From a virus (lineage: Duplodnaviria; Caudoviricetes): a stretch of 58,743 nt of DNA. The DNA is taken from positions 1 through 58,743 of the IMG/VR virus record IMGVR_UViG_3300032293_000861; one strand, given 5' to 3'. A model generated the notes under the pieces. It searched no databases and was not told the DNA's origin. It worked only from the letters and a program-made list of their open reading frames with translations. Of this stretch, positions 1 through 19,421 are shown one piece after another. Both the position numbers and the translations under genes were made by a program. Every line of letters starts with the position of its first letter. Position 1 is the stretch's first letter.

Positions 1-133
1 GAAAGTTGCACCGCCGAAAGTTGCACCGCCGAAAGTTGCACCGCCGAAAGTTGCACCGCCGAAAGTTGCACCGCCGAAAGTTGCACCGCCGAAAGTTGCA
101 CCGACGAAAGCTGCACCGCCGAAAGTTGCACCT
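1..133 (+). repeat. 15-bp tandem repeat GAAAGTTGCACCGCC encoding (KVAPP)n; left contig end, overlapping the right end
   Basis: About 9 units, with variants at 91-120. Read from position 2 it is in the same frame as ORF 185-9682 with no stop. Positions 1-102 are identical to 58642-58743. Confidence 0.95.
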
Positions 134-3100: not shown

Positions 3101-6100
3101 CGTGTTGGATTCCGCGAAAGCAAAGGATTCTTCAAACGCATCTTGGATACTATCTTGGATATCTTTGGAATCCGCGCAGCCCTCCGTCAGAGCGAGATCT
3201 ACACACAGATGGTTGATCTCGTTTACTACGCCCCGAACACGGAACCCCGCACGATGGGTCGCTTTAACTCTGGGCTAGCACAGTCGGTCGCGGAAGCGGC
3301 AGCGGAGTATAAGGAGAATACGTCAACGGTTGGGGACTTGACCCGACCCGGAACCGTGATCCCTGCACCCAATGCCCAAGCAACGCCTGTGGTGGCAGGA
3401 GACCCGAACATGGTCCAAGACCCCCGTGATACCGAACGGCAGCGGGAGCTTGCCCGAACCATGGTCGCACGAATCCGGAGTCTTGGATCTGTCCCCGCCG
3501 AAGTCCCCGTGGTTGTTAACTACGGTCTGCCACAAGCAATGGGCATCGATGTCGAGACAGGCAACTTGATCATCAACCCCGACAAGATCGCCTCTGATTT
3601 TGTGGGTATCACACAAGATGATGCGGAAGTTGACGTAGCACTGGAGATCGCCCTTGATGAGGAACTGACTCACGTTGCTGACGTTTCCACGATCCCACAA
3701 GGGGAGTTCAATCAATTCGCGAACACCATTGCCGACAGTGAGCTTGAGGAAACCGGAGTTAAATACTACAACGATCCTACCTACACGTTGCCGGATCCTG
3801 CCGTTGATTCGGACAGATACTTGACGGAACGAAACCTCCTTGTCTCCGAACGTCTGCGCCAGAATGTGCAGGGCATCCTCCTTGGTCAGTCCACGGAAGA
3901 CATGTTCTTGTTCCTTAGCCGGAACAAGGCTAACAAAGCGGTGTCCATGTTCGCAGAGGCATACTTCAAGCGTGTTGTCGCAGGATACACGATGAAGCGG
4001 AATCTGCGTAAGTTCAGCCCCCGCGAGCGTGCGCTCCTCACCAGACTCATCAACGAGCGTAGAAGGCTTGCCCTCAACTACCGTTCGCCAAACCCACACT
4101 TGACTGCGGGACTTACCGGAGAAGACTTGGTTAATCAGGTGGAGGCATTCATTGCCCAGCATAACAGTAAAATCGCCCCTGCCCCACCAGAGGAAGACAA
4201 ACCCGCAGAGGATCCGACCAAGTTCGATCAACAGAACAATCGGTTCACGGTGCAGGACGCGACCTTTGTCAGTCCGACCGACAACACCAAACTCTCTGGT
4301 GAGTTCCGTTCGTCTTTCAACCTGCCTCTTGTTACGGGACAAGTGGAGGAGATTGGCAAGCTGCTCGATAGAGGCAGGAACGACGAGGCATATGCCATGG
4401 CGGAGACCGCAGTCGCGCACATGCTTTCCGATATTCCGGCTGCGAAGTATACCTTCAAGGTCCAGAGAATCCGTGGAGCGTGGGCAGATCAATCGCAGCC
4501 GTCCTTGTCGATGACCTTTGGGACGGACTCAGAGGAGACCCTCACCGCTATCCGCAACCGGATGAACGCTCTTGGTCTCGCCTTCAACCAAGACGAGATC
4601 CACGAACTGGAAGTCCTCGATACTCTGCCCGAAGGCGCAGACTACGAGATCGGAGTGATCGATTCCGATGGGTCTCAGATCCAGCCGATGGTTACCATCA
4701 ACCTAAAGCAATCGATTCCAGCGGCAGCTATCGAGACCTACCGTAGGACATCCGGTATCGAGGGTATGAGCTATGACGATAAGAAGAAAGAGATAATTCT
4801 CTACAACCTCGATGGCGACCCGGAACTGTTTGTTCAGAAATTCCAAACAATTGTAAACAACATCAAAAATGACTTCCCGAAAACTATCCGATCTTATACA
4901 GAGGGCAATGTCCGAATCCGGCGTAGTGGCAATGCCACGGACGAAGGGCGCGGCATCTTCGCCTATGAAGACAACTATGTTCCTGACAGCAATGCCTATG
5001 GGCGCGACTCCGCCGATGAGTTCTTTGCCGCAAGGAATGCCTTTGTCCGAAGCATCCTTACCACAACCGGAGGAAGACTGACCTCACCGATCAACGGGAT
5101 ACAGATGGCAGTCTACAAGAAGACTGCACTTCCCGCTGAGCATAGCTTGCTACTTTTCGATACTGCTACCGACTTTGACAACCTACCGTTGGACGACTCC
5201 GCTAACCCAACGGTGCTGAAAGCATATGAAGCTTTGGTCAAGGATCTTGATCGGGCTTACAAGAGCATCGTAAACAAGAAGCTGAAGATCCAGCTTACCG
5301 ATGGTAAACCCTATGGGTCTCAGGATGAACTCATGTCCGACCTGACCACAGGGGTGTTGAAGATCCAGCGCACCAACCCGGATAGCTTTACGACTCCGGA
5401 CATTGCGAAGAAGCACCCGCTCCTCCGCGCCACCAACTACACAGGGATGCTTGTCGGTGAAGACGGAGCCGAAACTGTCGAGGCGACCCTGCTTAGTAAC
5501 GACCTGCTCCGGGTGCTTCACACTTTCTCTACCTACGGTGTATCCGGTCCCGTGTCTCAAGAAGGTTCGTACCAGTTCATGGCTGCTATGATGAGCAAGC
5601 CGGAAGCAGTGTGGGCCTTGAGTGGAGAGATCCGTGGGCAGTATGCTTGGCATATCTATGGACCCCATGCCCGTAAGCAGAACGGTGACTTGCTCCGCCC
5701 GGATGAAGTGGGGTATGTTCGTGGACCAGATCGTAGGTGGTCTGAGCAGAAGCTTGCCCTACTCCCGATCAAGGATGCTTTGACAGGGAATGCTGTTATC
5801 GATGACAAGCTCCGTAAATTTGCCAAGGATCTTGAGAGTGCCGCACCAGCACCGACCGTGCTTCCTGCACCCAGTGCCTCGCGATTCGGTGGAGGGAATC
5901 TTATCCCTGTTGTTGATAGGTTCGCCCCCGGCGTTGTGAAGGAGCGTGGTTTTGGGGGGAGATCACGGTCGGTCCTTGTGGAGATGCCTATCGATGAGTT
6001 TTTGAAGTATCCGACTCCGTTGGATAAAGAATCCCGCCAAGATGCCAGAGATTCTTTTAACAATGGAATTGGTTGGGATGATATCCCGAACCTTAAGATT

Positions 6101-9100
6101 GACGATACGGACATCAATAATGTCCGGGTTACAGGACATGAAGGCAGACACAGGGCACTTGTTCTAAAAGAGGCTGGGTATGTAACCATGCCTGTTGAGA
6201 TTCGTAGCACCTTGATTCGTTGGTCTGAGCAGAGTAACCCCCAAGCATCCGACTATACAGAATACATCCCTACTCAAGTATTATCCGAAGATGGTAAGCG
6301 AATGCTGCCCTATCCAGCGGATAGGAATTCATATCAGAACCAACAAGCTGTCTTTAATAGGTTGTCCTCACCACAAGTGGTCGGGGGTGGTATCCTTCCT
6401 GCACCCAGTGCCTCGCGATTCGGAGCCATATCCGGTATCCCGAATGCTGTATCGGCAGATACGACTGACTACTCTGGGTTCACTGAGTTGTTCACCATGC
6501 CAGCCTTTGAAGTTGGCACATACAGAAGCCCTTCGTCTACCTTGGGGAAAGTATTCTATGGATCATACGACACCCGCATCAAGCGACTGCTGAACATCAA
6601 CAATAGTCTTGAGCGTGCAGGTCTCGACATGATGGAACGCTTCAAGAAGCGTATCGACCTAATCGTTAAAAAGGAGTTCGATGGAGATCCTTCGCAGGTT
6701 GTAGGTCTTATGAACCGCGCATCCGGCACGACTCAGACAACCTTCAGCGATAATGCGTGGAACGCGATCAACGACAAGTATGACAAGCAGATCGAAGAGA
6801 TCGGGACTCCTGCCCGACCCTACGATCAGGTTGAATACGATGACATGATCACTGCGCTTACCGTGTCGAACCCGACTGTCCAAGCAGCGGTCATTGATAA
6901 GATGGCGCGGAGAGAACTCTACTCCTTGGAGGTGAACAGAGTTGAGGCAACGAGAACCGCTGAGATCAACGCGGAGCGTAAGAAGATCAATGATGCAGTC
7001 AGGTTGGATCGTGACGCAGCCTTCATCGAGCTTCGCAACATCTCGCCCAAGCTCGCCAAGGCAGTCGCTGACCTGCGCCAGATCATCGATGAGATCTCCC
7101 GTAAAGCGTCGAAGGAAACAGGGATCAAGAACCCCGCTCTTTCGGTCATCATCGAGGACAACCTTGGGATCTACGTCACCCGTGCTTATCAGTTCTTTGA
7201 AGATGCTGGATACGCGGACATCGTGATGAGTCCCGATGCTCAGGCTAGTTCAGCGATTGACCCAAGGGTTATCGATGCTGCGGACGATTACTTCCGGAAC
7301 GAGTTCCTCAAGTATGAAGTCAAACGACTCCAGAAGAATGACCTCACACTGACCAAGAGTCAGGCGGAAGCAGAAGCAGAGTATCGTTACCGGACCAGTT
7401 CGCATAAGCACGGCATGTCCCCTGCCATTGCAGCACGGATCGAGTTCCTTTCCCGCTATCGTCCGGGTGGCGCATCCGACCGCATGGCAGTAAACCAAGA
7501 CGTTGTGGACGTTGTGGATGCTTCCCTCAAACGTAGGAAAGATATCCCGCTGGTTCTGCGGAATCTGCTGGGTGAGCGCACTGGAGACGACGGTATCTAC
7601 AATCTGATCAGGACACTTGGTGTAGTCACGCGGGTGACATCCAGTCAAGCGATGGTCAACACCATCCACAACATCGCTACCACGGGTCCGAACAAGTGGG
7701 TCTACGGTCCCGATGAGGTTGGGGTGGGTGACGGGCAGATTCGTCGCGGAACTCTCAACGCAAAAGGTTACACCGCAATTTCCAACAAGGTGGGTAGTTC
7801 GCCCTTCAGCGCACTCCAAGGATACTTCGCCCCTAAAGAATTCGTTGAGGCTATGGAGCAATCCGCGAGCGAAGCATCAAGGAGATATGCCGCAGCAGCA
7901 AGTGAGGCGACAATCGAAAAGGCACTGGGGTGGTTTAAGTATCTCACCGGGGCTGTCATGGGTTGGAAGACCTTGTGGTCTGTTGCTCACTTTGGGCGGA
8001 ACGTCTTGGGTCAGTCGATGATGGCTATCCATCAGGGTAGGCCACACCTTATCTTTACATCTGCTAAACCACTACTTATGGAGGAAGGACCACGGGTTCT
8101 GCTTAGAACTTTGGGGATGGATGTAGATGAAGAGACCTTCGCCAGACGCATCAAGCTTGTCGGTCTTGGTGTCTTGGAGGATAACGTCCGCACCAACACG
8201 TTCCGGCAGTTGGTCGCAGGTCAGCGAACCATCGATGATGTCCAAGGGGAGATGCGTATGCTCTTCGACAAAGTTACCAAGAACAAGGTCGTTGGGTTTC
8301 TAGGCGACGTTCAGAACAGACTCGCAGAGTTGGAAGGTGCGACCGAAGACTTTATGAAGGTAGCGGTTTTCAGAGATACTCTGTCCGTCCTTACCAAGGC
8401 GCGGGACTCTGGCGAAGGTGGTTTCAAGGGAGTGGAGTTCGCCAAGATGACGGACAACGATCTTGAGCGACTAGCCGCAGACATGACTCAAGAGACCATG
8501 CCAGCATACTCGCGGACCACTCCGCTGGTGAAGGCATTCACCAAGTCAAACGCAGGAGATCTTGTGGCCCCCTTCATCCGGTATTGGTCTGAGATGATCC
8601 GTGTTACTGCGAGATCTCCGGTCCTTGCCTTGGAGGAGATTAGGTCAGGGAATCCGGTCATGCAGAAGCGGGGTGTCCAGCGTTTGGTTGGGTCCGCTAC
8701 AGCACATGCGATCTCTGCATTTGCCGCAGAAGCAATCACCTCATGGTTCTCCGATGTGGATGACGAGGAGGAAGAAACTCTGCGGGAAGGCACGCAGTCT
8801 TATCTACAAAACCACGCCCTCGCTTACTACCGTGATGCTGTGGATGGTGTTCTATACCAGCTTGATATATCCTTCCTAAACCCGCTATCAGTGGTGGGGG
8901 ATCCGATCAAGGCAGGATACGACAAGATGATCAAGGGTGACTTCTATGGTGGTATGTCAGCAATGCTTGGAACCGCACTGGAGGATACGATCTTGAATCC
9001 CCAGATTCTATTCGGTGCGGTTAAGAATGCTGTGGAGAATAGGAATGCAACGACTGGCGAACCTATATACATCGAGGGTGTTGATGCTGGCAGGGAAGCT

Positions 9101-9682
9101 GCATATAAGCAGATCAGTTATGTGGCGAGTAAGATCGCCCCGACCCTTGTGATCAGCACGTATAGGATTTATAAAGCTATGACTGCTGACGGTCCTGTTG
9201 AGGATGAATACTCTGCTGAAGCTGCGTTGAGGCAACTGGTCCTTCCTGCTCGCCCAACTCCCGTGGACGTAGAGCGGACCATGAGAAACATTACGAGAGT
9301 CACGAAAGATCAATTGAGTCAAGTAGCTTCGGCTCAGTATAGAGTCACTACACGAAAACTTACGAGTGATGAGGATGCCCGAGAGATGTATAGGGACACA
9401 GTCGAAGACACAAGGGGTATCCTGTCTAGGCTTTACAAGCACGGGGTAGCCTTAAGCTCACTGGGGGTTCCCAACGAGATCTTGTATGGCGGGATATCCG
9501 ACACCATCGGAAAGGGAAAAACCGACATGCTTTACTCAGGGTTCATGGCTGCTCCAGAGATACCAGAAGGGGTGGTAGAATCACTACTCCGATCCGACCG
9601 TAAAGAGGGTATTGGTCCTAGACTATTAAAAGCCCTCTACGGAGAAAGGGAGAACACCCCCGACTTCCTATCGGTCAAGTGA
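2..9682 (+). CDS. C-terminal ~3,200 aa of a giant virion-associated polyvalent/ejection protein (continues from 54710 across the contig join)
   Basis: Open frame from position 2 through 185 to the stop at 9682. Contains a PDZ-like segment (~1712-1890), zincin motif HEYLH (2885-2899), ParB/Srx-like GHEGRHR (~6134-6154) and a helical C-terminus typical of large phage internal proteins. Confidence 0.8.
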   Translation, partial: KVAPPKVAPPKVAPPKVAPPKVAPPKVAPPKVAPTKAAPPKVAPKRVRTPKPGDVVDSSGSVVEPTLDDQISEFLISENILSYEEATLESPTGGVNPNFEATAAAIKNVIVAGYPVKFSTNYQYGLKGVKFTTDNLSKLNKFIIEQIDQRYPKIPLPDAPGNYTSKTFSDSSGNKRTVYFQNDIPHFDNDPVTVRLLIAAGHTVVVPNMFWGNINRAIKVQTYDVKRATRVLRLDAETLIPVAIATTSINVPAGIAYYDSESFDYWKSIYSLFWNDKDKTQEIDFGISEEKALMYYTGKVGKITLKDYLTKADNFVGQKQLSLRSFLLIIDNNADLLRQAKDEIIVEAYGRAIQALIRSKLKGHVTKSGDKNNWVIGEGAVDAFKEFLVSVGKDPNEVAGALREMNFDKNKTPKNDELFRKYIASIFKGLNQLGFGDSDSVDKISDRVIDRYRKFIKKSRLREAVSNTIAIDNFARVADAPVSVSVGGDLTRMSFEGYAELTSGETPPDVAMMRKESGYFIDEILNLSPISLPPGAIGIGVQEITEPQRQVWTSPTGATLSEPIYYGGNRAFMVSSVIEYSPAEGALNPGDIITEINGEPTSRIYFSDLPEKLLYGNPGEEVNLQVIRFDQATNSYAGGSTPVTLTRVSQAAISEAGIPQGIKDFSNLSYSEISKALGRLSDVVVATADKYPEIKTGLIEIYRGFLGTSETYLDLRDKTSREILSGAMDVLNALSTDSDLGDFQLYSDESPVSKEALDAMAFLNKLRGPDQNLTKPLLLFRNYLRVMYNFSNGSIDAPLTDAEEVLILRPVEDLFEMVGMQLNEDNFNSIVKVLSMKIGNVIGKRVQDGFAKNFARTKEQRDAAEQRNTGEAKELGLVSGDPESVITALNRIVADNDYPLYLRTTARALLRSPDLIRNTKINIFSNNLDFAGKFGTDVNGNYVVSLNLRGSNGKSLASVLTHEYLHALTHNALNDPRYANNAKVIELKRTYEELKTLIEEKGLTDPELLAGMERVDEFVAYMFTSQSFQNAIKRVGFRESKGFFKRILDTILDIFGIRAALRQSEIYTQMVDLVYYAPNTEPRTMGRFNSGLAQSVAEAAAEYKENTSTVGDLTRPGTVIPAPNAQATPVVAGDPNMVQDPRDTERQRELARTMVARIRSLGSVPAEVPVVVNYGLPQAMGIDVETGNLIINPDKIASDFVGITQDDAEVDVALEIALDEELTHVADVSTIPQGEFNQFANTIADSELEETGVKYYNDPTYTLPDPAVDSDRYLTERNLLVSERLRQNVQGILLGQSTEDMFLFLSRNKANKAVSMFAEAYFKRVVAGYTMKRNLRKFSPRERALLTRLINERRRLALNYRSPNPHLTAGLTGEDLVNQVEAFIAQHNSKIAPAPPEEDKPAEDPTKFDQQNNRFTVQDATFVSPTDNTKLSGEFRSSFNLPLVTGQVEEIGKLLDRGRNDEAYAMAETAVAHMLSDIPAAKYTFKVQRIRGAWADQSQPSLSMTFGTDSEETLTAIRNRMNALGLAFNQDEIHELEVLDTLPEGADYEIGVIDSDGSQIQPMVTINLKQSIPAAAIETYRRTSGIEGMSYDDKKKEIILYNLDGDPELFVQKFQTIVNNIKNDFPKTIRSYTEGNVRIRRSGNATDEGRGIFAYEDNYVPDSNAYGRDSADEFFAARNAFVRSILTTTGGRLTSPINGIQMAVYKKTALPAEHSLLLFDTATDFDNLPLDDSANPTVLKAYEALVKDLDRAYKSIVNKKLKIQLTDGKPYGSQDELMSDLTTGVLKIQRTNPDSFTTPDIAKKHPLLRATNYTGMLVGEDGAETVEATLLSNDLLRVLHTFSTYGVSGPVSQEGSYQFMAAMMSKPEAVWALSGEIRGQYAWHIYGPHARKQNGDLLRPDEVGYVRGPDRRWSEQKLALLPIKDALTGNAVIDDKLRKFAKDLESAAPAPTVLPAPSASRFGGGNLIPVVDRFAPGVVKERGFGGRSRSVLVEMPIDEFLKYPTPLDKESRQDARDSFNNGIGWDDIPNLKIDDTDINNVRVTGHEGRHRALVLKEAGYVTMPVEIRSTLIRWSEQSNPQASDYTEYIPTQVLSEDGKRMLPYPADRNSYQNQQAVFNRLSSPQVVGGGILPAPSASRFGAISGIPNAVSADTTDYSGFTELFTMPAFEVGTYRSPSSTLGKVFYGSYDTRIKRLLNINNSLERAGLDMMERFKKRIDLIVKKEFDGDPSQVVGLMNRASGTTQTTFSDNAWNAINDKYDKQIEEIGTPARPYDQVEYDDMITALTVSNPTVQAAVIDKMARRELYSLEVNRVEATRTAEINAERKKINDAVRLDRDAAFIELRNISPKLAKAVADLRQIIDEISRKASKETGIKNPALSVIIEDNLGIYVTRAYQFFEDAGYADIVMSPDAQASSAIDPRVIDAADDYFRNEFLKYEVKRLQKNDLTLTKSQAEAEAEYRYRTSSHKHGMSPAIAARIEFLSRYRPGGASDRMAVNQDVVDVVDASLKRRKDIPLVLRNLLGERTGDDGIYNLIRTLGVVTRVTSSQAMVNTIHNIATTGPNKWVYGPDEVGVGDGQIRRGTLNAKGYTAISNKVGSSPFSALQGYFAPKEFVEAMEQSASEASRRYAAAASEATIEKALGWFKYLTGAVMGWKTLWSVAHFGRNVLGQSMMAIHQGRPHLIFTSAKPLLMEEGPRVLLRTLGMDVDEETFARRIKLVGLGVLEDNVRTNTFRQLVAGQRTIDDVQGEMRMLFDKVTKNKVVGFLGDVQNRLAELEGATEDFMKVAVFRDTLSVLTKARDSGEGGFKGVEFAKMTDNDLERLAADMTQETMPAYSRTTPLVKAFTKSNAGDLVAPFIRYWSEMIRVTARSPVLALEEIRSGNPVMQKRGVQRLVGSATAHAISAFAAEAITSWFSDVDDEEEETLREGTQSYLQNHALAYYRDAVDGVLYQLDISFLNPLSVVGDPIKAGYDKMIKGDFYGGMSAMLGTALEDTILNPQILFGAVKNAVENRNATTGEPIYIEGVDAGREAAYKQISYVASKIAPTLVISTYRIYKAMTADGPVEDEYSAEAALRQLVLPARPTPVDVERTMRNITRVTKDQLSQVASAQYRVTTRKLTSDEDAREMYRDTVEDTRGILSRLYKHGVALSSLGVPNEILYGGISDTIGKGKTDMLYSGFMAAPEIPEGVVESLLRSDRKEGIGPRLLKALYGERENTPDFLSVK
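5861..6423 (+). repeat. 29-bp exact direct repeat CTTCCTGCACCCAGTGCCTCGCGATTCGG (5861-5889 and 6395-6423) flanking a ParB-like domain
   Basis: Both copies read directly from the sequence; both encode LPAPSASRFG. Confidence 0.9.
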
Positions 9683-12135: not shown

Positions 12136-13026
12136 TCAGATACCAAGGTCACTGAGCGTTGACTCGATGGCGGCGCGACCTGCCTTGACCGACTCGATAG
12201 CAGCAGCCCGTTGAGCCGACTCTCCTGCGACCACGTAGTCACCCACTGGCAGGGTCTGGTCGAGCCTGTCACAGAGGGCATCGATCTCCTCGACACGGAA
12301 CCAGTTGCGCTCGCGGATCGACAGGACACGGTCACGGAGGTTGTCGAACCGTGCGCCCTTAATCCTCTTCGCATCAGTCCACTGAGCCACTGAGCCATCG
12401 ATGTAGTCCAACACATCTTCCAGATCACGGGTGAGGTTCTCGGTGTAGAACTCAGTGAACTGACGCTCCGACTCGATGCGGGTGCGGGTCGCGACCTCCT
12501 CGCCGAGGACGGCAAGAGTTTCCTGACTGAGGGGGGAGAACCCATCCAGCCACCTGATGCTGAAGGTCAGTTTTCTGATGTAGTCATCCGCAGTGGGCCA
12601 AACTAGGTTGTTGATGCCAACCAGTCCAGCAAGGTTCGCCTTGGCGGTATCCACGATGTCCCCCCACTGATCGCGGATGCGGTTGTGGAGGACAACCAAC
12701 GTCCCCTTGAGCTTGTCCTCCCCATCCTTGACGAGGGGGATGTTCTTGGCGGGGATGATGATCGTCCCCTCGATGGAGGTGGGTGTGCCACTATACTTAC
12801 GGCTCGTCTTGAGTTCCGTGCGGAACCCTTCGATGGCTGAGAGGCACTCGCCCACTGCGTTCCCCTTGCGGGGGATCATCGATGCCGTGATCTTGAAGGC
12901 GCGACGATCCGCACCACTTGACATCGCTATCTGTTCCTTCGTCTCCTTGAGGGAGAGCGTAGGGATCTGACGCGCCCCACTGAAGACAAGGGTGGAGAGC
13001 GAGGTGATTTCCATATTCAGTTTCAT
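12136..13026 (-). CDS. hypothetical protein of the AAA/VWA module (DUF3150-like position)
   Basis: 296-aa helical ORF between the MoxR-like ATPase and VWA genes; family assigned by synteny only. Confidence 0.6.
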   Translation of the reverse strand: MKLNMEITSLSTLVFSGARQIPTLSLKETKEQIAMSSGADRRAFKITASMIPRKGNAVGECLSAIEGFRTELKTSRKYSGTPTSIEGTIIIPAKNIPLVKDGEDKLKGTLVVLHNRIRDQWGDIVDTAKANLAGLVGINNLVWPTADDYIRKLTFSIRWLDGFSPLSQETLAVLGEEVATRTRIESERQFTEFYTENLTRDLEDVLDYIDGSVAQWTDAKRIKGARFDNLRDRVLSIRERNWFRVEEIDALCDRLDQTLPVGDYVVAGESAQRAAAIESVKAGRAAIESTLSDLGI

Positions 13027-13160
13027 ATCTTATCTAGTTTTCTATCCGGCTAGTTTAGGTTGACCCTCCGCCGCACCGGGGACGGTTGGGAGGGGAGGTG
13101 TTGATCCACCTATGCCACCACCTTAGCCCATCGGTGGGCTAAGGTGGCAGGGGAGGGGGA
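13027..13160 (-). ncRNA. structured intergenic element, type A copy 1 (TTAG/CTAA hairpin + small hairpin + CCCGGU pseudoknot + A-rich leader)
   Basis: Near-identical to 14301-14436; stems covary among copies. Confidence 0.7.
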
Positions 13161-14300
13161 TCACGCAGTCATCCAAGCCTTGACCCGCGCATCGGAGGTC
13201 AGGGACAGGAGCGGGTCACGGGAACCCAGATCAACGAGGTAGTCGCGCACCTCTTTGGAGCCACGATTATCAAGGGCGACCAACACCCGTTCGATGTAGG
13301 GGGCGAGACCACCTGCCAGTGCGAAGTAGGAGGGCGACTCCGCCGCACGGGACTGGTTCCTCGTCAAGCGGTGCGCTGCCACTGCCGTGCAGAACTCCGC
13401 CTGTTTTGCAGTAGGCAGTGAGGCGTGACCTGCCAGCACATTCTTGGCAGTGTCGATGTGCTTTGCCAGTGTCTGCGAGAACGCATAGCTGGCGGGTCCG
13501 GTGTTGGGTCCGAGGATACCTTGCAGCAGAAGCTGCATGACCTGCGGGTTGTCCCTATACTCAAAGTCAGGGTGAGTCGCCCTGCAAGCACCCTCATGTC
13601 CTCGCGGGGTGGGGTAGGGAACCCCATCCCAAGGGGTGACAGGGGCAGGGGACCAGTGACGCTCCACCTCTTGGGCATGGGTGGAGAACTTCAAGAACTT
13701 CGCATGATCCGACTCCCCAAGGATCGCACCCCGATCCGGCTCCGGGAAGGAACCAGACCGTGATGCGTTGCCGGAACCACCGTTCGCCCAGTCCATCCAG
13801 AAGTCGAGATCAGGCTCGACTAGGATGGTCACGCATCGTGTCACCATTGGCGCGGACAGCACCCGCACACTGGTGCTGTGCTTCCGCTGGTTCCCGGTGA
13901 TGACTGGCAAGACTCGCTTGCCGAGACGGTGTGTCCCGATCTTCGCGCCCTCACTATCAGCATCAAAGATGCCGTGGAACTCCGCGATGACTTCGTCCCC
14001 AGCGTTGGGGAGTTCGTCAATAGCGAACAGTGTGGGTTCGTCCCATGTTGGGAGATCCTCCGGGCAGGAGAATCTCATGGCTCCGGTCGAGGCATCGGGG
14101 ATGCCATAACCGATGACCTCCTGTGGGCCTTTGCCCACAGGGTTGAGCTTGTGGTATCTGGTGCAGCCGCACAAAGCCTGTGCGGTCTTGGTCAATGCGG
14201 TCTTACCGACTCCCGGCGCACCGAGGAGCAAAGGAGTGAGACCGCAGAGGTGGGAAGCACGGATCATGTCCGCGACGAGGGCAGTAGGGGTAGTATTCAT
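13161..14300 (-). CDS. MoxR-like AAA+ ATPase
   Basis: Walker A GAPGVGKT, Walker B LFAIDE, ITGN sensor, TPR motif. Confidence 0.88.
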   Translation of the reverse strand: MNTTPTALVADMIRASHLCGLTPLLLGAPGVGKTALTKTAQALCGCTRYHKLNPVGKGPQEVIGYGIPDASTGAMRFSCPEDLPTWDEPTLFAIDELPNAGDEVIAEFHGIFDADSEGAKIGTHRLGKRVLPVITGNQRKHSTSVRVLSAPMVTRCVTILVEPDLDFWMDWANGGSGNASRSGSFPEPDRGAILGESDHAKFLKFSTHAQEVERHWSPAPVTPWDGVPYPTPRGHEGACRATHPDFEYRDNPQVMQLLLQGILGPNTGPASYAFSQTLAKHIDTAKNVLAGHASLPTAKQAEFCTAVAAHRLTRNQSRAAESPSYFALAGGLAPYIERVLVALDNRGSKEVRDYLVDLGSRDPLLSLTSDARVKAWMTA

Positions 14301-14436
14301 ATCTTATCTTTTGTTTTATCCGGCAGGTTTGGTTGGTTGACCCTCCGCCGCACCGGGACGGTTGAGAGGGTAGGTGTTGAGCCACCTGTGCTACCACCTT
14401 AGCCCATCGGTGGGCTAAGGTGGCAGGGGAGGGGGA
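14301..14436 (-). ncRNA. structured intergenic element, type A copy 2
   Basis: Same hairpin and pseudoknot architecture as 13027-13160. Confidence 0.7.
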
Positions 14437-15012
14437 TCAGGCGACAGTAATCCAGTCGAAACGGAAGTCAGGGTGTCCTTCTTTCTTGGACATGATCGCG
14501 ACCGAGTTAGTGTCACCATCCCATTCGTAGTTGTCAGGATCAACGTCACCATAGTGTCCGTTCTCCATCATCCAAGCGTGCATGTCACAACCCATGACAT
14601 CCTGCCCTTCGCAGGTAACGAAGACATCAACGAGGGTCTCCACCCCCTCATCGAATCGGAAGAGATGCCACGCGAACTCAGAGTTGTCGCGATACCAATG
14701 GAACTTAGCCTCGTCGTTGATGCTCTCGACAGCATCGTTGAACTCCTCTTCCGAGAAGGGGAATGTGAGGGCGATAGGTCCAACCTCGACATCGGAACCC
14801 TCCACGATGCTGCCGATCATCAAGGCAGTGACGTTGAGGGGATCGAAACCCACCGGGGGAGTATCCTCGTAGTAAACTTCAGACCCATCTCTCAGCACGG
14901 CAGTAGTCCACGGACCACATTCGATAGCCTTGTAAAGAGATCGTCCGAATTGATAGAGGTTATCACTACCGAAGGACTTCAACAACTTGGGGAACGAACT
15001 GTGTTTTTTCAT
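14437..15012 (-). CDS. hypothetical protein (acidic)
   Basis: ORF 14437-15066; start moved to the ATG at 15012 after the AAAGAT leader. Confidence 0.75.
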   Translation of the reverse strand: MKKHSSFPKLLKSFGSDNLYQFGRSLYKAIECGPWTTAVLRDGSEVYYEDTPPVGFDPLNVTALMIGSIVEGSDVEVGPIALTFPFSEEEFNDAVESINDEAKFHWYRDNSEFAWHLFRFDEGVETLVDVFVTCEGQDVMGCDMHAWMMENGHYGDVDPDNYEWDGDTNSVAIMSKKEGHPDFRFDWITVA

Positions 15013-15166
15013 ATCTTTATCTTGTCTTTCATCCGGCAGGTTTGGTTGGTTGACCCTCCGCCGCACCGGGACGGTTGGGAGGGGAGGGCGGTAAACCCAT
15101 GCCGCACCGGGGATCGGACCCCGGTGCGGGTTGGAGCTACCACATGTAGCAGACTTTTAATTAAGG
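15013..15166 (-). ncRNA. structured intergenic element, type A copy 3 (pseudoknot kept, upstream hairpins replaced)
   Basis: 15031-15083 matches copies 1 and 2; a different GC-rich hairpin lies at 15102-15129. Confidence 0.65.
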
Positions 15167-15559
15167 TCAATTCTTTTTGGTGATGCTGTAGAGGTGCGTC
15201 ACCTTCCGTCGATCTCGCCCCCGGCACGGGTCAAGGTCAACGAGGACCAGTCCCGTAGGGGCAAGGAGCAGGGCATGACCCGTCACCCTCACCAACACTC
15301 CGACAAAGGCAGGGTCATGGATGGGGGTGGTCCTGAGCCATCGACAGAGGGTCGAGACCTCCCGTCCGAGGAACGGGGGGTTCCTGATCCATGTCACATG
15401 ATACAGGGTTCGGGATGCACGAACGATATCGGCTACAGTGTGGAGGTAGCGGACTCTGTGGGTAACTCCTAGGTAGTCGGTGATCGCGACCGCACAGGAG
15501 TTCCGGCGTGGGTCCACCCCATTGCTGGAGCGGACCAGTCGATGCCTATCTGGGGTCAT
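15167..15559 (-). CDS. hypothetical protein, possible papain-like Cys-His-Asp fold
   Basis: NSCAVAI ... VRVTGHALL ... VLVDLD spacing; start at ATG 15559 overlaps the upstream gene end. Confidence 0.5.
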   Translation of the reverse strand: MTPDRHRLVRSSNGVDPRRNSCAVAITDYLGVTHRVRYLHTVADIVRASRTLYHVTWIRNPPFLGREVSTLCRWLRTTPIHDPAFVGVLVRVTGHALLLAPTGLVLVDLDPCRGRDRRKVTHLYSITKKN

Positions 15560-15908
15560 TTGGTTGGATGAGGATCTCCTTCCCGGTGATGACCGCATAC
15601 TTCGCGGAGTGGATGGGTTCCCCCGATCCTACTATCTGGAAGGAGGGCATCGTGTATGGGTTGTAGGTGACTACGGTGGTGGGGTTGATCGGGTCTCCAG
15701 TTACGAGGACCAACTCACCTTCGATGAAGGCGTGGACGTTCTTCCGCTTCTCCCGTAGCACCCGTTGCCTCCCTGACTCAGACACCTTGAACCGGATGTT
15801 ATGGAGCGCGACTTGGGCAGCATGCCGCCATAGCCTCCACCCTTTAGGGGTCTTGTGCTGCACCGACAACTGATCACGGTGCAGGTTAAAGTAGACTCTC
15901 ACTTTCAT
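15546..15908 (-). CDS. conserved phage hypothetical protein (resembles the mycobacteriophage L5 gp82-like family)
   Basis: VYFNLH ... FKVSESGRQRVLREKRKNVHAF ... YNPY motifs, recognised from memory. Confidence 0.7.
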   Translation of the reverse strand: MKVRVYFNLHRDQLSVQHKTPKGWRLWRHAAQVALHNIRFKVSESGRQRVLREKRKNVHAFIEGELVLVTGDPINPTTVVTYNPYTMPSFQIVGSGEPIHSAKYAVITGKEILIQPNDPR

Positions 15909-15910
15909 GG

Positions 15911-16003
15911 TTATGGGAAGATGAGGTTGAGGATACTGTCTACGGACATCACGGCGATGAGTCCGAGTCCGATTACGATGGCTTCAATGATGTGCTTTAG
16001 CAT
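15911..16003 (-). CDS. small membrane peptide (30 aa, MLKHIIEAIVIGLGLIAVMSVDSILNLIFP)
   Basis: Directly follows a type B element leader; stop lies 2 nt before the next ATG. Confidence 0.65.
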   Translation of the reverse strand: MLKHIIEAIVIGLGLIAVMSVDSILNLIFP

Positions 16004-16107
16004 ACTTATCTATTCTTCTATTGGTTTGTTTGTTTAGTTGGGCGACTTACCCCTGCTGCCCACTTAGTGCAAGCTTGCACTAAATGGGCAGGGTGGGGTG
16101 CTTCACA
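16004..16107 (-). ncRNA. structured intergenic element, type B copy 1
   Basis: TTAGTGCAAGCTTGCACTAA hairpin, GGGCGA small hairpin and AACTAAAC A-rich leader. Confidence 0.65.
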
Positions 16108-16680
16108 TTAGGCACTCATCTCATCCGCGATGCGGCGGAAGGCATCCGCTACCTTGCGGCGGAGCAAGGCATCGATCTTGGAATCGATGTCGATGCCATC
16201 GACGATGCGGTCGATGATTTCACTTTCATCTACCTCGTAGTTCTCCACGATGCGATCCGTGACATCGTCCTCATCGATGCTGATACCACTTGTGAGATCA
16301 TCGATGATGCGGTCTTCGATTTCGCTGCAATCGGAGATGTTACTCTTCACATACTTTGTGATGTCATCCTCCACGTTGGTGACATCGAAGTTGTCTGCCA
16401 CATCCCGCACGATCTGGTCGCTGATGCCGTCAAGGTCCATCCCGTTATACATGATGTAGCTCATCACATCGTCCTGTGACAGGTCACGTGAGACATCATC
16501 CGCCAGACTCTGGCAGATCTCTTCGGTATTGATTTGATCTGACAGGGATCGTACCGCATGGGCCTTGATGCTTTCGATCAAGGTTCCGGGATCAGGGATC
16601 AGGATCTTGACGATCCCGGTGATGGCACGGGTGCGGAGGTTGGTGATGGTGGTGGTGATGGTGTTCTTGATGTTCTTCAT
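16108..16680 (-). CDS. acidic hypothetical protein with ~13-aa internal repeats (D..EI.DRI)
   Basis: 190-aa ORF with a TAGAT-ATG leader. Confidence 0.75.
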   Translation of the reverse strand: MKNIKNTITTTITNLRTRAITGIVKILIPDPGTLIESIKAHAVRSLSDQINTEEICQSLADDVSRDLSQDDVMSYIMYNGMDLDGISDQIVRDVADNFDVTNVEDDITKYVKSNISDCSEIEDRIIDDLTSGISIDEDDVTDRIVENYEVDESEIIDRIVDGIDIDSKIDALLRRKVADAFRRIADEMSA

Positions 16681-16829
16681 ATCTATTCTTCTTTTGTTTT
16701 GTTGGTTTGTTTAGTTGGGCGACTCGCCCCTGCTACCCATTTAGTGCAAGCTTGCACTAAATGGGCAGGGTGGGGTGCTTCACGGGTGTGCTGCTAATCG
16801 GGCATCAACTAGCAGCAAATTAGCAGGGG
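16681..16829 (-). ncRNA. structured intergenic element, type B copy 2
   Basis: Near-identical to 17273-17412, with an extra TGCTGCTA..TAGCAGCA hairpin relative to copy 1. Confidence 0.7.
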
Positions 16830-17012
16830 TTACAGGGTGACGGTCTCCGCCTTGATCTGGACGGTGAAGCCCAGTGCCTTGAGGGCATCGATGTCATGCC
16901 TGTCGATGGTGACCTTCTTGGTCAGGGTGCTGACCGCACGGGCGGTATCGGGGTCGTTGATGTAATACATCAAGTTTCCGTAGTTGCTTTTGGTGTGGAC
17001 GTAGATCGTCAT
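16830..17012 (-). CDS. small phage hypothetical protein (60 aa)
   Basis: MTIYVHTKSNYG...TLTKKVTIDRHDIDALKALGF; start moved to ATG 17012. Confidence 0.65.
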   Translation of the reverse strand: MTIYVHTKSNYGNLMYYINDPDTARAVSTLTKKVTIDRHDIDALKALGFTVQIKAETVTL

Positions 17013-17032
17013 GGGGTGTTGGGGTTGGGGGA

Positions 17033-17272
17033 TCAGACAGAGACGGTGTGGATGCGGGTTGACCCATTGATCCGCTTGCAATCCATCGTGCAAGTGGTGT
17101 CAGGGAGTAGTGACAACCGTTTCGCCAGCATAAACGCGGCGATTGAGTGGAGGTGGTCATCGCTATGCCTCCACGGCACTGTGTCACACAGACCATATGG
17201 CACGCTATACGTGACACGTGATGTCTCACAGGATGCGACGATGTTCCCCTTTTTCTTAGTGGTCTTGATCAT
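17033..17272 (-). CDS. hypothetical protein
   Basis: 79-aa ORF directly after an element leader ending TAGAT-ATG. Confidence 0.65.
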   Translation of the reverse strand: MIKTTKKKGNIVASCETSRVTYSVPYGLCDTVPWRHSDDHLHSIAAFMLAKRLSLLPDTTCTMDCKRINGSTRIHTVSV

Positions 17273-17412
17273 ATCTATTCTATTCTTCTATTGGTTTAGT
17301 TTAGTTGGGCGACTCGCCCCTGCTACCCTTAGCCCACGGATGGGCTAAGGGCAGGGTGGGGTGCTTCACGGGTGTGCTGCTAATTGGGTAGCAACTAGCA
17401 GCAAATTAGCTA
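17273..17412 (-). ncRNA. structured intergenic element, type B copy 3 (carries a type A inner hairpin)
   Basis: Type B flanks with a TTAGCCCA-CGGA-TGGGCTAA core. Confidence 0.7.
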
Positions 17413-18135
17413 TCAGTGTTGGGGATACAGGATCAGGGTCCGCCCACCTTGCGAGCAAAGCGTGCAACCACCCTTGCCGGAACCACACTTGATCTTGACG
17501 GGTCTCCTAAGAATCGTGGATGCGATGGCGGGGCAGACGCTCGCACCGGGATTGGCACGGGCAATCTCTTGGGCCTTGGCGAGGCGATCCCGCTTCGTCT
17601 TCCCGTCATACACGATGCGGGATGCGGGATCACCGGAGGCGAGGGAATCCATGGCGCGTTGGTCAGACTGTGCGGACTCCCTGACCACAAGGGTCAGGTC
17701 ATATGCTTTGGCAATGTCACGGAACCGCTCCGCCTTCTCCCGCGTTTCCACAGGGAAGTGAACCGGGACACCGGGAGGAAACGCCCGGACCAATCGCACG
17801 AAGGCAGCTTCCTCCGCAAGGGTGAGTTCACGATCCGGCACGGAGCCGAAGGTAGAGAATCGAATCCACGGGACCATGGTCCCCCTTGCAGATAGTCGCG
17901 CTATCTCTTCACGGTATGCATCGCAGAGCGGGGCAAACCCGTGGAGTCTTTTCCGTTCACCCGAGGTTTGGATGGACGGCTTCATCTTTTCGGTATGCAC
18001 TGCGTAGCAGACATTCTTGATGAGTGCCTCGCAGGTGGGTGAGCAATTCACCCCGCCGGATTCGGCGAAGTTAAGGGAGACAGCACCGGGGAGTGCCTTG
18101 CTGAATTCACCGAGTTTTGGTTTCCAGTTTTTCAT
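17413..18135 (-). CDS. Cys-rich protein, Gp88-like (radical-SAM-related Cys motif)
   Basis: CSPTC...CYA, IRFSTFGSVP, CPA...CGSGKGGCTLC and terminal YPQH; start at ATG 18135. Confidence 0.65.
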   Translation of the reverse strand: MKNWKPKLGEFSKALPGAVSLNFAESGGVNCSPTCEALIKNVCYAVHTEKMKPSIQTSGERKRLHGFAPLCDAYREEIARLSARGTMVPWIRFSTFGSVPDRELTLAEEAAFVRLVRAFPPGVPVHFPVETREKAERFRDIAKAYDLTLVVRESAQSDQRAMDSLASGDPASRIVYDGKTKRDRLAKAQEIARANPGASVCPAIASTILRRPVKIKCGSGKGGCTLCSQGGRTLILYPQH

Positions 18136-18281
18136 ATCTTCTTTTCTTTTGTTTTGTTGTATCCGGCAAGCTGTGTTGAACCTTCGCACCGCACCGGGAC
18201 GGTGCGAAGGGTAGGTGATGCACCTCTGCTACCCATTTAGCAAACGTTTGCTAAATGGGCAGGGTGGGGTGGGTCACAGGG
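18136..18281 (-). ncRNA. structured intergenic element, type A copy 4
   Basis: 12-bp stem with CCCGGU loop and downstream UGCCGGAU; TTAGCAAACGTTTGCTAA hairpin. Confidence 0.7.
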
Positions 18282-18581
18282 TCACGCGTGAGGGAAACCT
18301 CCGTCTCCTAGAAGGACTCCAAGGTCGATGCCTCCGTTCTCAGCGATGAATTGCTCCACCTTGTGAACGGGAACGTAGGCGTAGATGCCCCCATTAGACT
18401 CCCCATACTCTTCAAAGTAGGGCGGAGCGTCTCCACCTTGGATGAATCCAACTTCACATTCCGAGTAAGCTTGAGAGCAATCCTCCCGAGGTTCTGAGTA
18501 AACGAAGGAGTTCGCTTGAACGGAGAAGGAAACTCCGTTTTTGCACACAAGGCGACGGTTCAATTGGCGGGTCAATTTCAT
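18282..18581 (-). CDS. conserved phage hypothetical protein
   Basis: CKNGVSFSVQA...YSEPR...EVGF...IYAYVP motifs; start at ATG 18581. Confidence 0.7.
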   Translation of the reverse strand: MKLTRQLNRRLVCKNGVSFSVQANSFVYSEPREDCSQAYSECEVGFIQGGDAPPYFEEYGESNGGIYAYVPVHKVEQFIAENGGIDLGVLLGDGGFPHA

Positions 18582-18766
18582 ATGGTATTCTATTCTTCTA
18601 TCCGGCAAGTTTGGTTTGGTTCCTGCATCATGACACCGGGATCATGATGCAGGGTGCGGGGATCATTCCCCCTCCCATCCACTTAGTGCAAGCTTGCACT
18701 AAATGGGCGGGAGGGGAAACCCTGCTTAGTGCAAGCTTGCACTAAGCAGGGATCCGGGTGCGGGGA
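18582..18766 (-). ncRNA. structured intergenic element with two TTAG/CTAA hairpins and the pseudoknot (copy 5)
   Basis: 13-bp stem of unrelated sequence but the same CCCGGU loop and UGCCGGAU partner; hairpins at 18666-18718 and 18720-18751. Confidence 0.7.
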
Positions 18767-19150
18767 TCAGGCAAGATCGGCCACGGTGATGCCGTGCTCT
18801 TCCATCATCGCCTTGATCTTGGCGAGCGCTTTATCCTTTGAGCTAGCCTTGACAGTCCCGGATCGCTCCTTGCGCTTCGCACCGTCTTTGTTCGTGGACT
18901 CAAAACCAGAATCCCGGAGCCATCGGTTTAGAATGGATTGTGAGCGAATCTCGCTACCGTCCTCCGTGTTAGTGTTCCACTTCTTAAGTGACTTAAGAGC
19001 TGAATCACGAGAAACGCCAGACTCCCTTGCGGCCACGAGTAGCTCTTTGATGCAATCGGACAAGTAAACGAGCTGATTGTCTCCCTCGCGAATGGAGATG
19101 AAAAGGTTACAAAGTTGCTCGTTCATTTGTGCGTTCATTTGTTTGTTCAT
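18767..19150 (-). CDS. hypothetical protein, first gene of the early operon
   Basis: 127-aa ORF with an A-rich leader; C-terminal IKAMMEEHGITVADL recalls the H-NS oligomerisation segment (weak). Confidence 0.7.
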   Translation of the reverse strand: MNKQMNAQMNEQLCNLFISIREGDNQLVYLSDCIKELLVAARESGVSRDSALKSLKKWNTNTEDGSEIRSQSILNRWLRDSGFESTNKDGAKRKERSGTVKASSKDKALAKIKAMMEEHGITVADLA

Positions 19151-19242
19151 AGTAGTGTCTTTCTTTTCTTTGTTTTTGTTATGTCAGTTAGTGCAACCTT
19201 GCACTACCCTGATCTATACCCTTACGGGAAAGTGACCTAAAA

Positions 19243-19310
19243 CCCTCCCCTCTCTTATATAGGGGAACCATGCACCCCCTCCCCTCTCTTATATAGGGGA
19301 ACCATGCACC
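19243..19310. repeat. 34-bp exact tandem duplication CCCTCCCCTCTCTTATATAGGGGAACCATGCACC at the transcription divergence point
   Basis: Copies at 19243-19276 and 19277-19310; internal CCCCT..AGGGG inverted arms. Confidence 0.9.
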
Positions 19311-19421
19311 CTGTCCCCCGGACCCAGAACCATGAACCACTGTTCAAGAGACCACGCCACGGGTGGGTGCGGCAGCTTTGCTGCGCGCGCGTATACATAT
19401 ATACCTCCAAAGGAAAAAAAT

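Follow-up and report, generated by a model that had tools for sequence, protein, structure and literature searches.

A repeated hairpin-and-box element in the leaders of early-type genes of an uncultivated lake phage

The early genes of phages are mostly small, unknown and fast-evolving, and the organisation of their expression is poorly understood outside the model phages. The leader of T4 gene 32 contains a pseudoknot, and the operator of T4 gp43 consists of a hairpin and an adjacent single-stranded word which are read as a unit. In the early region of T7, structured RNA between the genes comprises RNase III processing sites of about two turns of double-stranded RNA. The hairpin promoters of the N4 virion RNA polymerase have a 5-7-bp stem and a 3-nt loop and require an N4-type polymerase, and the nut sites of lambda-type phages are composed of boxA and boxB, are present twice per genome and work with the N protein. 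Here we describe a composite motif in the complete virus record IMGVR_UViG_3300032293_000861 (58,743 bases, direct terminal repeats, estimated completeness 100%), which is referred to in its whole length as the window and comes from an uncultivated freshwater (lake) phage. The motif comprises a hairpin with a CCGG-containing loop, an A/C-rich linker, a GCCGGAT box and an A-rich leader that runs up to the ATG, and it precedes five genes.

Two described systems of T4-type phages are of particular interest for comparison. The PeSL (promoter-early stem-loop) cassettes combine a strong sigma-70-like promoter with a terminator stem-loop (PMC2839356, PMC4122927). T4 RegB is described as cutting within GGAG/U in early intergenic regions, helped by A-rich 3' sequence; most of its sites coincide with the Shine-Dalgarno sequence, and base pairing of a site prevents its use (PMC3014915). 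The element of the window belongs with phage intergenic regulatory cassettes and leader hairpins, a kind that is already known. We propose, with a probability of roughly 0.45, that it is a lineage-specific cis-acting 5'-leader RNA element of five genes which would act on mRNA stability or translation and may be read by a phage protein.

The composite motif and its hairpin

A preliminary description of the window had placed five copies of the motif on the minus strand. These were found at the claimed positions when the sequence was re-read, and the pattern CCGGTG..GCCGGAT has five matches. In 100 shuffles that preserve the dinucleotides the average is 0.06 and the highest count 1, so that none reached five. 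In the whole record all five matches are on the reverse strand and none on the forward strand, and the control pattern read backwards has none. All copies lie within a minus-strand block of mostly small genes at about 10.5-19.2 kb.

The scores given for the copies refer to a covariance model, R1, which was built from four perfect-stem copies. Copy 1 (13027..13094, minus strand) is situated before a 296-aa gene (12136-13026). Its hairpin (13064-13094) belongs to the class with an internal loop and carries the loop CCCCGGT (13075-13081); linker (13051-13063), box GCCGGAT (13044-13050), leader (13027-13043) and ATG (13024-13026) follow, and R1 assigns 40.4 bits (E 2.9e-08). Copy 2 (14301..14371, minus strand) precedes the gene of an AAA_5-type ATPase (13161-14300; assigned by Pfam and PHROG) and consists of a hairpin with one extra U.G pair (14340-14371), the loop CCCGGT (14352-14357), the linker (14325-14339), the box (14318-14324) and the leader (14301-14317), with an R1 score of 38 bits (E 1.2e-07). 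Before a 191-aa gene (14437-15012) lies copy 3 (15013..15083, minus strand; 37.6 bits, E 1.4e-07), with hairpin at 15054-15083, loop at 15065-15070, linker at 15038-15053, box at 15031-15037 and leader at 15013-15030. The highest of these scores, 78.1 bits, is obtained for copy 4 (18136..18210, minus strand), which precedes a 240-aa gene (17413-18135) and has a perfect 12-bp stem (18181-18210), a loop at 18193-18198, a linker at 18168-18180, a box at 18161-18167 and, with 25 nt, the longest leader (18136-18160). Copy 5 (18582..18653, minus strand; 38.7 bits, E 7.8e-08), before a 99-aa gene (18282-18581), is built from a perfect 13-bp stem (18622-18653) with its loop at 18635-18640, a linker (18607-18621), a box (18600-18606) and a leader (18582-18599).

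The order of the parts is identical in every copy, and the loop reads CCCGGU, with CCCCGGU in copy 1 alone. A stem consists either of 12-13 uninterrupted pairs or of 6+4 pairs (10 bp) that flank a 3/1 internal loop; the three stem classes of the preliminary description, two perfect and one with an internal loop, were borne out, as was the U.G pair at the stem closure, which is present in all five copies. The linker is almost devoid of G and measures 13-16 nt in the window, which agrees with the earlier account, and 11-16 nt across all instances described below. From the end of the box to the ATG there are 17-25 nt in the window, again as claimed, and 16-25 nt across all instances, which is a narrow range. 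The leader is A-rich, ends in GAU-AUG and has no Shine-Dalgarno site.

Relatives were gathered with a profile of the ATPase, which has eight homologues in a large protein collection, across IMG/VR, the JGI metagenomes and species genomes. One relative was found in IMG/VR (52% identity; L006, also G001) and nine loci in the JGI metagenomes, three of them at 87-90% (L008, L009, L010) and four at 52-53% (L011-L014); the remaining two are a short piece with 61% over 70 residues (L016) and a locus at 32% (L015). The profile search of the species genomes found none, and neither did a scan with a single protein. In the sequences searched, R1 detects exactly 15 full-length instances on the sense strand: five in the window, seven in L008, two in L009 and one in L010, the last being identical to one of the L009 copies. 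Their E-values span 9e-18 to 6e-5. In total the model gave 40 matches at E<=10 in 136,983 bases, of which the other 25 comprise seven antisense hairpin-only matches and 18 weak ones (E>=0.023). There is no sixth copy in the 58.7-kb window, and none in the clade at 52-53% identity. Two pattern scans of IMG/VR returned seven loci, all of them chance matches in GC-rich, mostly coding sequence, and 13 loci without any R1 match at E<=1. As these scans returned chance matches only, the motif is, on the databases searched, restricted to one narrow clade of uncultivated lake phages.

The pairing of the hairpin was followed in an alignment of 14 rows (12 distinct), made with the R1 model and covering 12 hairpin pairs. 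Six of the 12 pairs show changes on both sides, and 94.8% of the cells are paired, compared to 31-54% when the partners are slid by 1-3 columns as a control. The covariation score is 0.246 versus 0.099 in shuffles, and none of 500 shuffles reaches it. RNAalifold, run unguided, predicts nine pairs, five of them with compensatory changes. Single comparisons give the same picture: one L009 stem differs from copy 4 of the window at three pairs, all of which are compensated, and in the stem of one L008 copy a G-C has become A-U and a C-G has become U.G. Judged from this alignment, the hairpin is well supported and kept by compensatory change. The complete stem covariation of the preliminary description can therefore be retained for the hairpin (6/12 pairs, 0/500 shuffles), but it does not extend beyond it to the proposed helix between loop and box.

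That description had also held that wobble pairing functions on the mRNA strand alone. In all copies the U.G at the stem closure can indeed form only in sense, and three further one-sided changes give U.G pairs in sense and no A.C. The folding energies say less: the hairpin alone folds better in sense in nine of 14 instances (mean -17.9 versus -16.7 kcal/mol), while for the class with an internal loop the antisense strand folds equally well or better in five of seven copies. Taken together the strand evidence modestly favours the mRNA strand.

The earlier statement that the element is not a described RNA family agrees with the search of Rfam 15, in which the whole window has no match at gathering score. 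In E-value mode the region 12900-19400 gave 11 weak matches at E<=5, none of which overlaps the five elements; all are to miRNA or sRNA models and reach 19-27 bits, compared to gathering scores of 44-90. We take the hairpin to be real and, with regard to Rfam, undescribed. The 15 instances, which have 4-5 versions of the stem and are invariant in loop and box, make the motif a clean and compact RNA element.

Cassettes, their exchange and the sister clade

The cassettes that carry the element have the order long hairpin, CCGG hairpin, A/C-rich linker, box and A-rich leader. All intergenic regions of the block are strongly structured, with z-scores of -2.9 to -7.8 for eight of them; whole cassettes reach -2.9 to -7.3 and thus fold much better than their shuffles. 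Each region opens with a long hairpin of about 20-30 bp with bulges, the lower stem of which includes the stop codon of the upstream gene. Since the long hairpin begins at or includes this codon, the cassette supplies the stop of the gene before it. Long hairpins with TTAG...CTAA cores are located on the minus strand at 13103-13162, 14383-14438, 16047-16097, 16724-16774, 17320-17370, 18218-18268 and 18666-18716. The core palindrome is nearly uniform per genome, namely TGCAAGCTTGCA in the window and TGCATCATGCA in L008; that it is uniform within and different between genomes suggests concerted change or a co-evolving reader.

A second class of cassettes (16004-16107, 16681-16829 and 17273-17412; z-scores -6.3 to -7.8) contains neither the CCGG hairpin nor the box, and here the long hairpin is directly followed by the A/C-rich stretch and the A-rich leader. 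The element is present in five of about nine cassettes of the block. Its presence can differ for one and the same gene: a 190-aa gene, 83% identical between the two genomes, has a hairpin-less leader in the window (16681-16829) and a hairpin plus box in L008 (6677-6727). As the element is optional for a given gene, natural pairs with and without it exist.

A comparison of the window (14301-14317 and 15013-15030) with L008 (9279-9294 and 9984-10000) shows that the leaders of the ATPase gene and of the 191-aa gene, from box to ATG, have changed places, which points to recombination inside the cassettes, between hairpin and start codon. The 191-aa gene is absent from L009. The metagenome runs which contain parts of the stretch are lake or freshwater by label, and none of those found is of RNA; the four that were compared, which are DNA contigs and display no starts or ends, carry close variants. 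In the lake contigs whole gene-plus-cassette units are deleted or replaced, with breakpoints within cassettes; the joints are 14305>15012, 16783>17412, 18266>18589, 17358>18582 and 13111>17322. On this comparison of sequences the element is an optional, exchangeable module of a repeated cassette which is recombined among relatives.

No sigma-70-like site was found in any cassette between 10000 and 20500. The three promoter-like sites of this region (19422, 19922 and 10574; shuffle mean 5.9) are all situated outside the cassettes. None of six terminator-like matches coincides with a cassette hairpin, and no T-run follows the long hairpins. A host-type promoter within the cassette was considered and rejected, as besides the missing sigma-70-like site the -35/-10 and other two-box arrangements that can be picked out by eye around the invariant AAC of the linker and the box are too short or too variable in their spacing.

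The relatives with 52-53% ATPase identity form a sister clade. At the equivalent position their cassettes carry a different covarying hairpin, with variable loops and with compensatory changes in the stems. In 17 of 18 cassettes (L006, L011, L012 and L014; e.g. L012 1859-1925) this hairpin begins 3 nt after a -10-like TATNAT, a count which is anchored on the 3' end of the hairpin only and to which one further match, a coding false positive, does not belong. The sister ATPase gene is preceded by a TTGACT-17-TACAAT promoter, then by a 7-8-bp hairpin and an A-rich leader (L006 at about 4672-4766; also in L011-L014). From this clear promoter the host polymerase appears to read ordinary sigma-70-type promoters. 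The cassette hairpins of the sister clade would be placed at the very start of transcripts, and the whole looks like a unit of terminator, promoter and 5' hairpin, nearer to the PeSLs than the cassettes of the window. By analogy the hairpin of the window probably lies at or near the 5' end of the message. Such an end could result from initiation at an unrecognised signal or from processing at the preceding long hairpin.

Loop, box and a proposed role in the leader

The preliminary description had proposed that loop and box pair to give an H-type pseudoknot. Loop CCGGU and box GCCGG can form five pairs in 13 of 14 instances and four pairs in one, and the predicted loop-box duplex has -7.7 to -9.2 kcal/mol. 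The loop varies at its first position only (C or A, or an extra C, the extra base also being seen at position 18195 in lake contigs), and in the pseudoknot model it is this position that has no partner. Variation is also seen in the base 5' of the box. The box ends in GGAU in 13 of the instances and in GGAC in one, followed by the A-rich leader. The loops of the pseudoknot would be 1-2 nt (first), 0 nt (second) and 11-16 nt (third, across a 12-13-bp stem), lengths which we take to be feasible with regard to pseudoknots that have 11-bp first stems.

The complementarity itself has to be read with care. Because CCGG is its own reverse complement, any two CCGG words are complementary by construction, and when the downstream piece is shuffled, a 5-bp complement of the loop turns up in 2-8% of cases. 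The complementarity claimed earlier is there, but covariation of the second helix is not. We regard the H-type pseudoknot, on the strength of these sequences, as possible, with about one chance in three.

How the element could act may be pictured as follows. The minus-strand block would be read as long transcripts, and the long hairpin at the upstream stop codon would either end the upstream message or be cut out of it, so that the CCGG hairpin would come to lie close to the start of the message that follows. A hairpin in this place may protect the message and keep the leader open for translation that is independent of a Shine-Dalgarno site. The fixed loop and the box would then serve as recognition surfaces, which either pair with each other in the 5-bp helix of an H-type pseudoknot or are both read by one factor. 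The preliminary description had suggested a nuclease block, a translation enhancer independent of Shine-Dalgarno sites, or a sensor; such roles are conceivable, but a sensor of a ligand before genes that are unrelated is unlikely.

Several observations weigh against this account. Four of the five pairs of the second helix are invariant and no pair is changed on both sides. The sole variant (L008 5485-5537), in which a loop U has become C and a box G has become U, breaks the fifth pair; the same copy has a G.G mismatch in its stem. Pairing of loop and box leaves the invariant A after the CCGG of the box unexplained, and the A/C-rich leaders are also found in the hairpin-less cassettes, so the composition of the linker is not specific to a pseudoknot. 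In the sister clade complementarity between loop and leader is partial and does not track the loop changes, and we therefore rejected the pseudoknot as a general principle. As regards the hairpin, the alignment was fitted to a model, which favours the structure, and the 15 instances stem from no more than 3-4 genomes, all close relatives (ATPase 87-91% identical). The strand evidence is weak: with linker and box added, it is the G/U-rich antisense strand that has the better fold in 11 of 14 instances, and the claim about the wobble pairs is itself weak evidence for the mRNA strand. Finally, the transcription units, their 5' ends and the processing are all deduced from sequence.

A stronger version of the proposal, which we consider rather unlikely, takes the H-type pseudoknot as true. 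Situated at the 5' edge of a leader that lacks a Shine-Dalgarno site, it would then serve as a portable "expression cap" of the phage, which blocks 5'-end-dependent decay and docks the small ribosomal subunit, or else as the operator of a phage RNA-binding protein for a temporal sub-class of early messages. If this were true, it would represent a viral cis-regulatory RNA of a new class, one which passes from gene to gene in a recombining cassette. If control of stability or of Shine-Dalgarno-independent translation is true, a portable part would be added to the post-transcriptional control of phages. In either case the reach is narrow, as a single clade of uncultivated lake phages is concerned.

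Rival readings, the gene block and known systems

In the main alternative reading the element would be the operator or target of a trans-acting RNA-binding protein or endoribonuclease, of phage or host. This factor would recognise the loop CCGGU together with the box CCGGA(U) and so control how some of the early messages are timed or how long they last, in the manner of T4 RegA, RegB or gp43. Loop and box stay constant, in contrast to the stems, the length of the linker and the leader, which is the pattern of sequence-specific reading, and such a reader could account for the A after the CCGG, which pairing does not explain. A different hairpin at the same position in the sister clade is expected for a co-evolving reader, and the presence of the element in five of about nine cassettes suggests a sub-regulon. 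In addition GGA(U) with an A-rich 3' stretch resembles the T4 RegB site as it is described (PMC3014915). On the other hand, in the open reading frames (ORFs) scanned, which include part of the small ones, Pfam and PHROG gave no match to RegA, RegB or any other family of RNA-binding proteins. GCCGGAT occurs 21 times compared to 7.7 expected and CCGG 271 times per strand in the genome, so these words are not avoided; GCCGGAT is even found on the sense strand inside two coding regions of the block (13734 and 17833). The box lies 16-25 nt from the AUG without overlapping it, unlike the RegA sites (PMC3014915). We consider this reading unlikely, though it is the strongest of the rivals.

Improbable, in our view, is a signal at the DNA level, i.e. 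a promoter which a phage RNA polymerase or a sigma-like factor that escaped recognition would use, a single-stranded DNA hairpin of the N4 type, or a priming site, which would mark each transcription unit. Conserved lineage-specific words at a fixed short distance before early genes are typical of phage promoters, and the -10-like element of the sister-clade cassettes is found at the equivalent place. A giant virion-type open frame, which runs off both ends of the record (54710-58741 and 2-9682; 1,344 + 3,226 aa), first suggested an N4-like virion polymerase. This candidate was rejected. With the giant ORF searched in four pieces, PDZ domains are the sole Pfam matches; tblastn with 2,326 aa gave distant matches to five phage records, only in genes labelled lysin or ADP-ribosyltransferase; and searches of the PDB sequences with the giant ORF and a 750-aa ORF, which is portal-like as a lead only, gave nothing relevant. 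Pfam matched no RNA polymerase in the giant ORF or the other large ORFs scanned, where a very diverged enzyme is possible. A promoter in DNA is less likely because no polymerase was detected, because the CCGG-to-CCGG spacing of 29-33 nt varies by about 4 bp, which a two-site signal in double-stranded DNA would ill tolerate, and because the one-sided changes in the stem are sense-strand wobbles. A stem of 12-13 bp with a loop of 6-7 nt is also outside the dimensions of the N4 hairpins.

Still less probable is that the element has no function in expression and is carried along in cassettes which mainly offer homology for the swap of gene modules. The joints of the lake contigs across gene-plus-cassette units, with breakpoints inside cassettes, would fit, and so would the swapped leaders of the ATPase and 191-aa genes between the window and L008, the lack of the 191-aa gene in L009, and the one degenerate copy in L008, whose gene is intact. 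However, swaps by homology need no structure, yet the pairing of the stem is kept as its sequence diverges; loop and box are invariant across unrelated stems, and the distance from box to AUG is constrained. A small-molecule pseudoknot riboswitch like preQ1-I or SAM-II, to which the layout of hairpin, A-rich tail and 3' segment pairing with the loop bears an overall likeness, is very improbable, because the downstream genes are functionally unrelated (five, and seven in L008), and furthermore a hairpin-less leader can take the place of the element, none of the Rfam riboswitch models gives a match up to E<=5, and the first stem of 12-13 bp is far longer than in those classes.

The end of the minus-strand block holds, besides the AAA_5-type ATPase and the 296-aa protein, a DUF2201 metallopeptidase/VWA protein (Pfam, PHROG). 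At 15546-15908 a homologue of gp82 of mycobacteriophage L5 is encoded (Pfam E 4.5e-32), and the 240-aa gene on the minus strand (17413-18135) has a weak Pfam match to L5 gp88. In 12 Mycobacterium phage records, stretches of about 55-110 bases match the gp82-like gene with 73-84% nucleotide identity. The L5-like genes may hint at gene flow with actinobacteria, or at a host among them. The window also encodes a family A DNA polymerase, a DUF5906-type primase-helicase, a DEAD-type helicase, a collagen-repeat protein and a DUF2800/PD-(D/E)XK nuclease. ARAGORN detected no tRNA genes in the window, and there is no close cultured relative in the phage collection that was searched.

Compared to the known systems, the element resembles the nut sites in that a linear conserved box and a hairpin of conserved loop and variable stem would be carried on early transcripts. 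In contrast to these the hairpin comes first, there are 5-7 copies per genome, each after a hairpin, and no N-like protein was identified in the window. With the N4 promoters it shares hairpins upstream of early genes and a phage with a giant virion-type ORF, but the stem of 12-13 bp (10 bp with the internal loop) and the loop of 6-7 nt differ, and the polymerase was not found in the ORFs scanned. Like the RNase III sites of T7 the cassettes provide structured RNA between early genes, and it is the long hairpins (z-scores down to -7.8) that attain the length of those sites and resemble them; the stem of the element itself is too short with its 12-13 bp, and nothing in the T7 sites corresponds to its fixed loop and box.

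Like the T4 translational operators of gp32 and gp43 the element is a structured part of the leader before an unstructured A-rich initiation region, and its hairpin with a nearby word, if read together, is similar to the operator of gp43. In contrast to it, the T4 operators are single-gene and autoregulatory, or unstructured and AU-rich at the AUG (PMC3014915), while the element here recurs in front of 5-7 unrelated genes, with its end 16-25 nt away from the AUG. With RegB targets it has in common a short G-rich word with GGA(U) that lies between early genes and is followed by A-rich sequence; it differs in the lack of a Shine-Dalgarno sequence, in the word CCGGA(U) and in the upstream hairpin (PMC3014915). 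A RegB-family nuclease was matched neither by Pfam nor by PHROG among the ORFs scanned, which comprise part of the small ones.

From the PeSLs the cassettes of the window differ in that neither a sigma-70-like site nor a terminator of hairpin plus T-run was found in them, and the fixed-loop hairpin with its downstream box has no counterpart in the PeSL descriptions (PMC2839356, PMC4122927). What they share with them is the organisation as small composite intergenic cassettes repeated between small variable early genes (PMC2839356, PMC4122927), and recombination between the copies that leads to insertion, deletion and replacement of genes, as is seen here in the joints of the lake contigs and in the swapped leaders.

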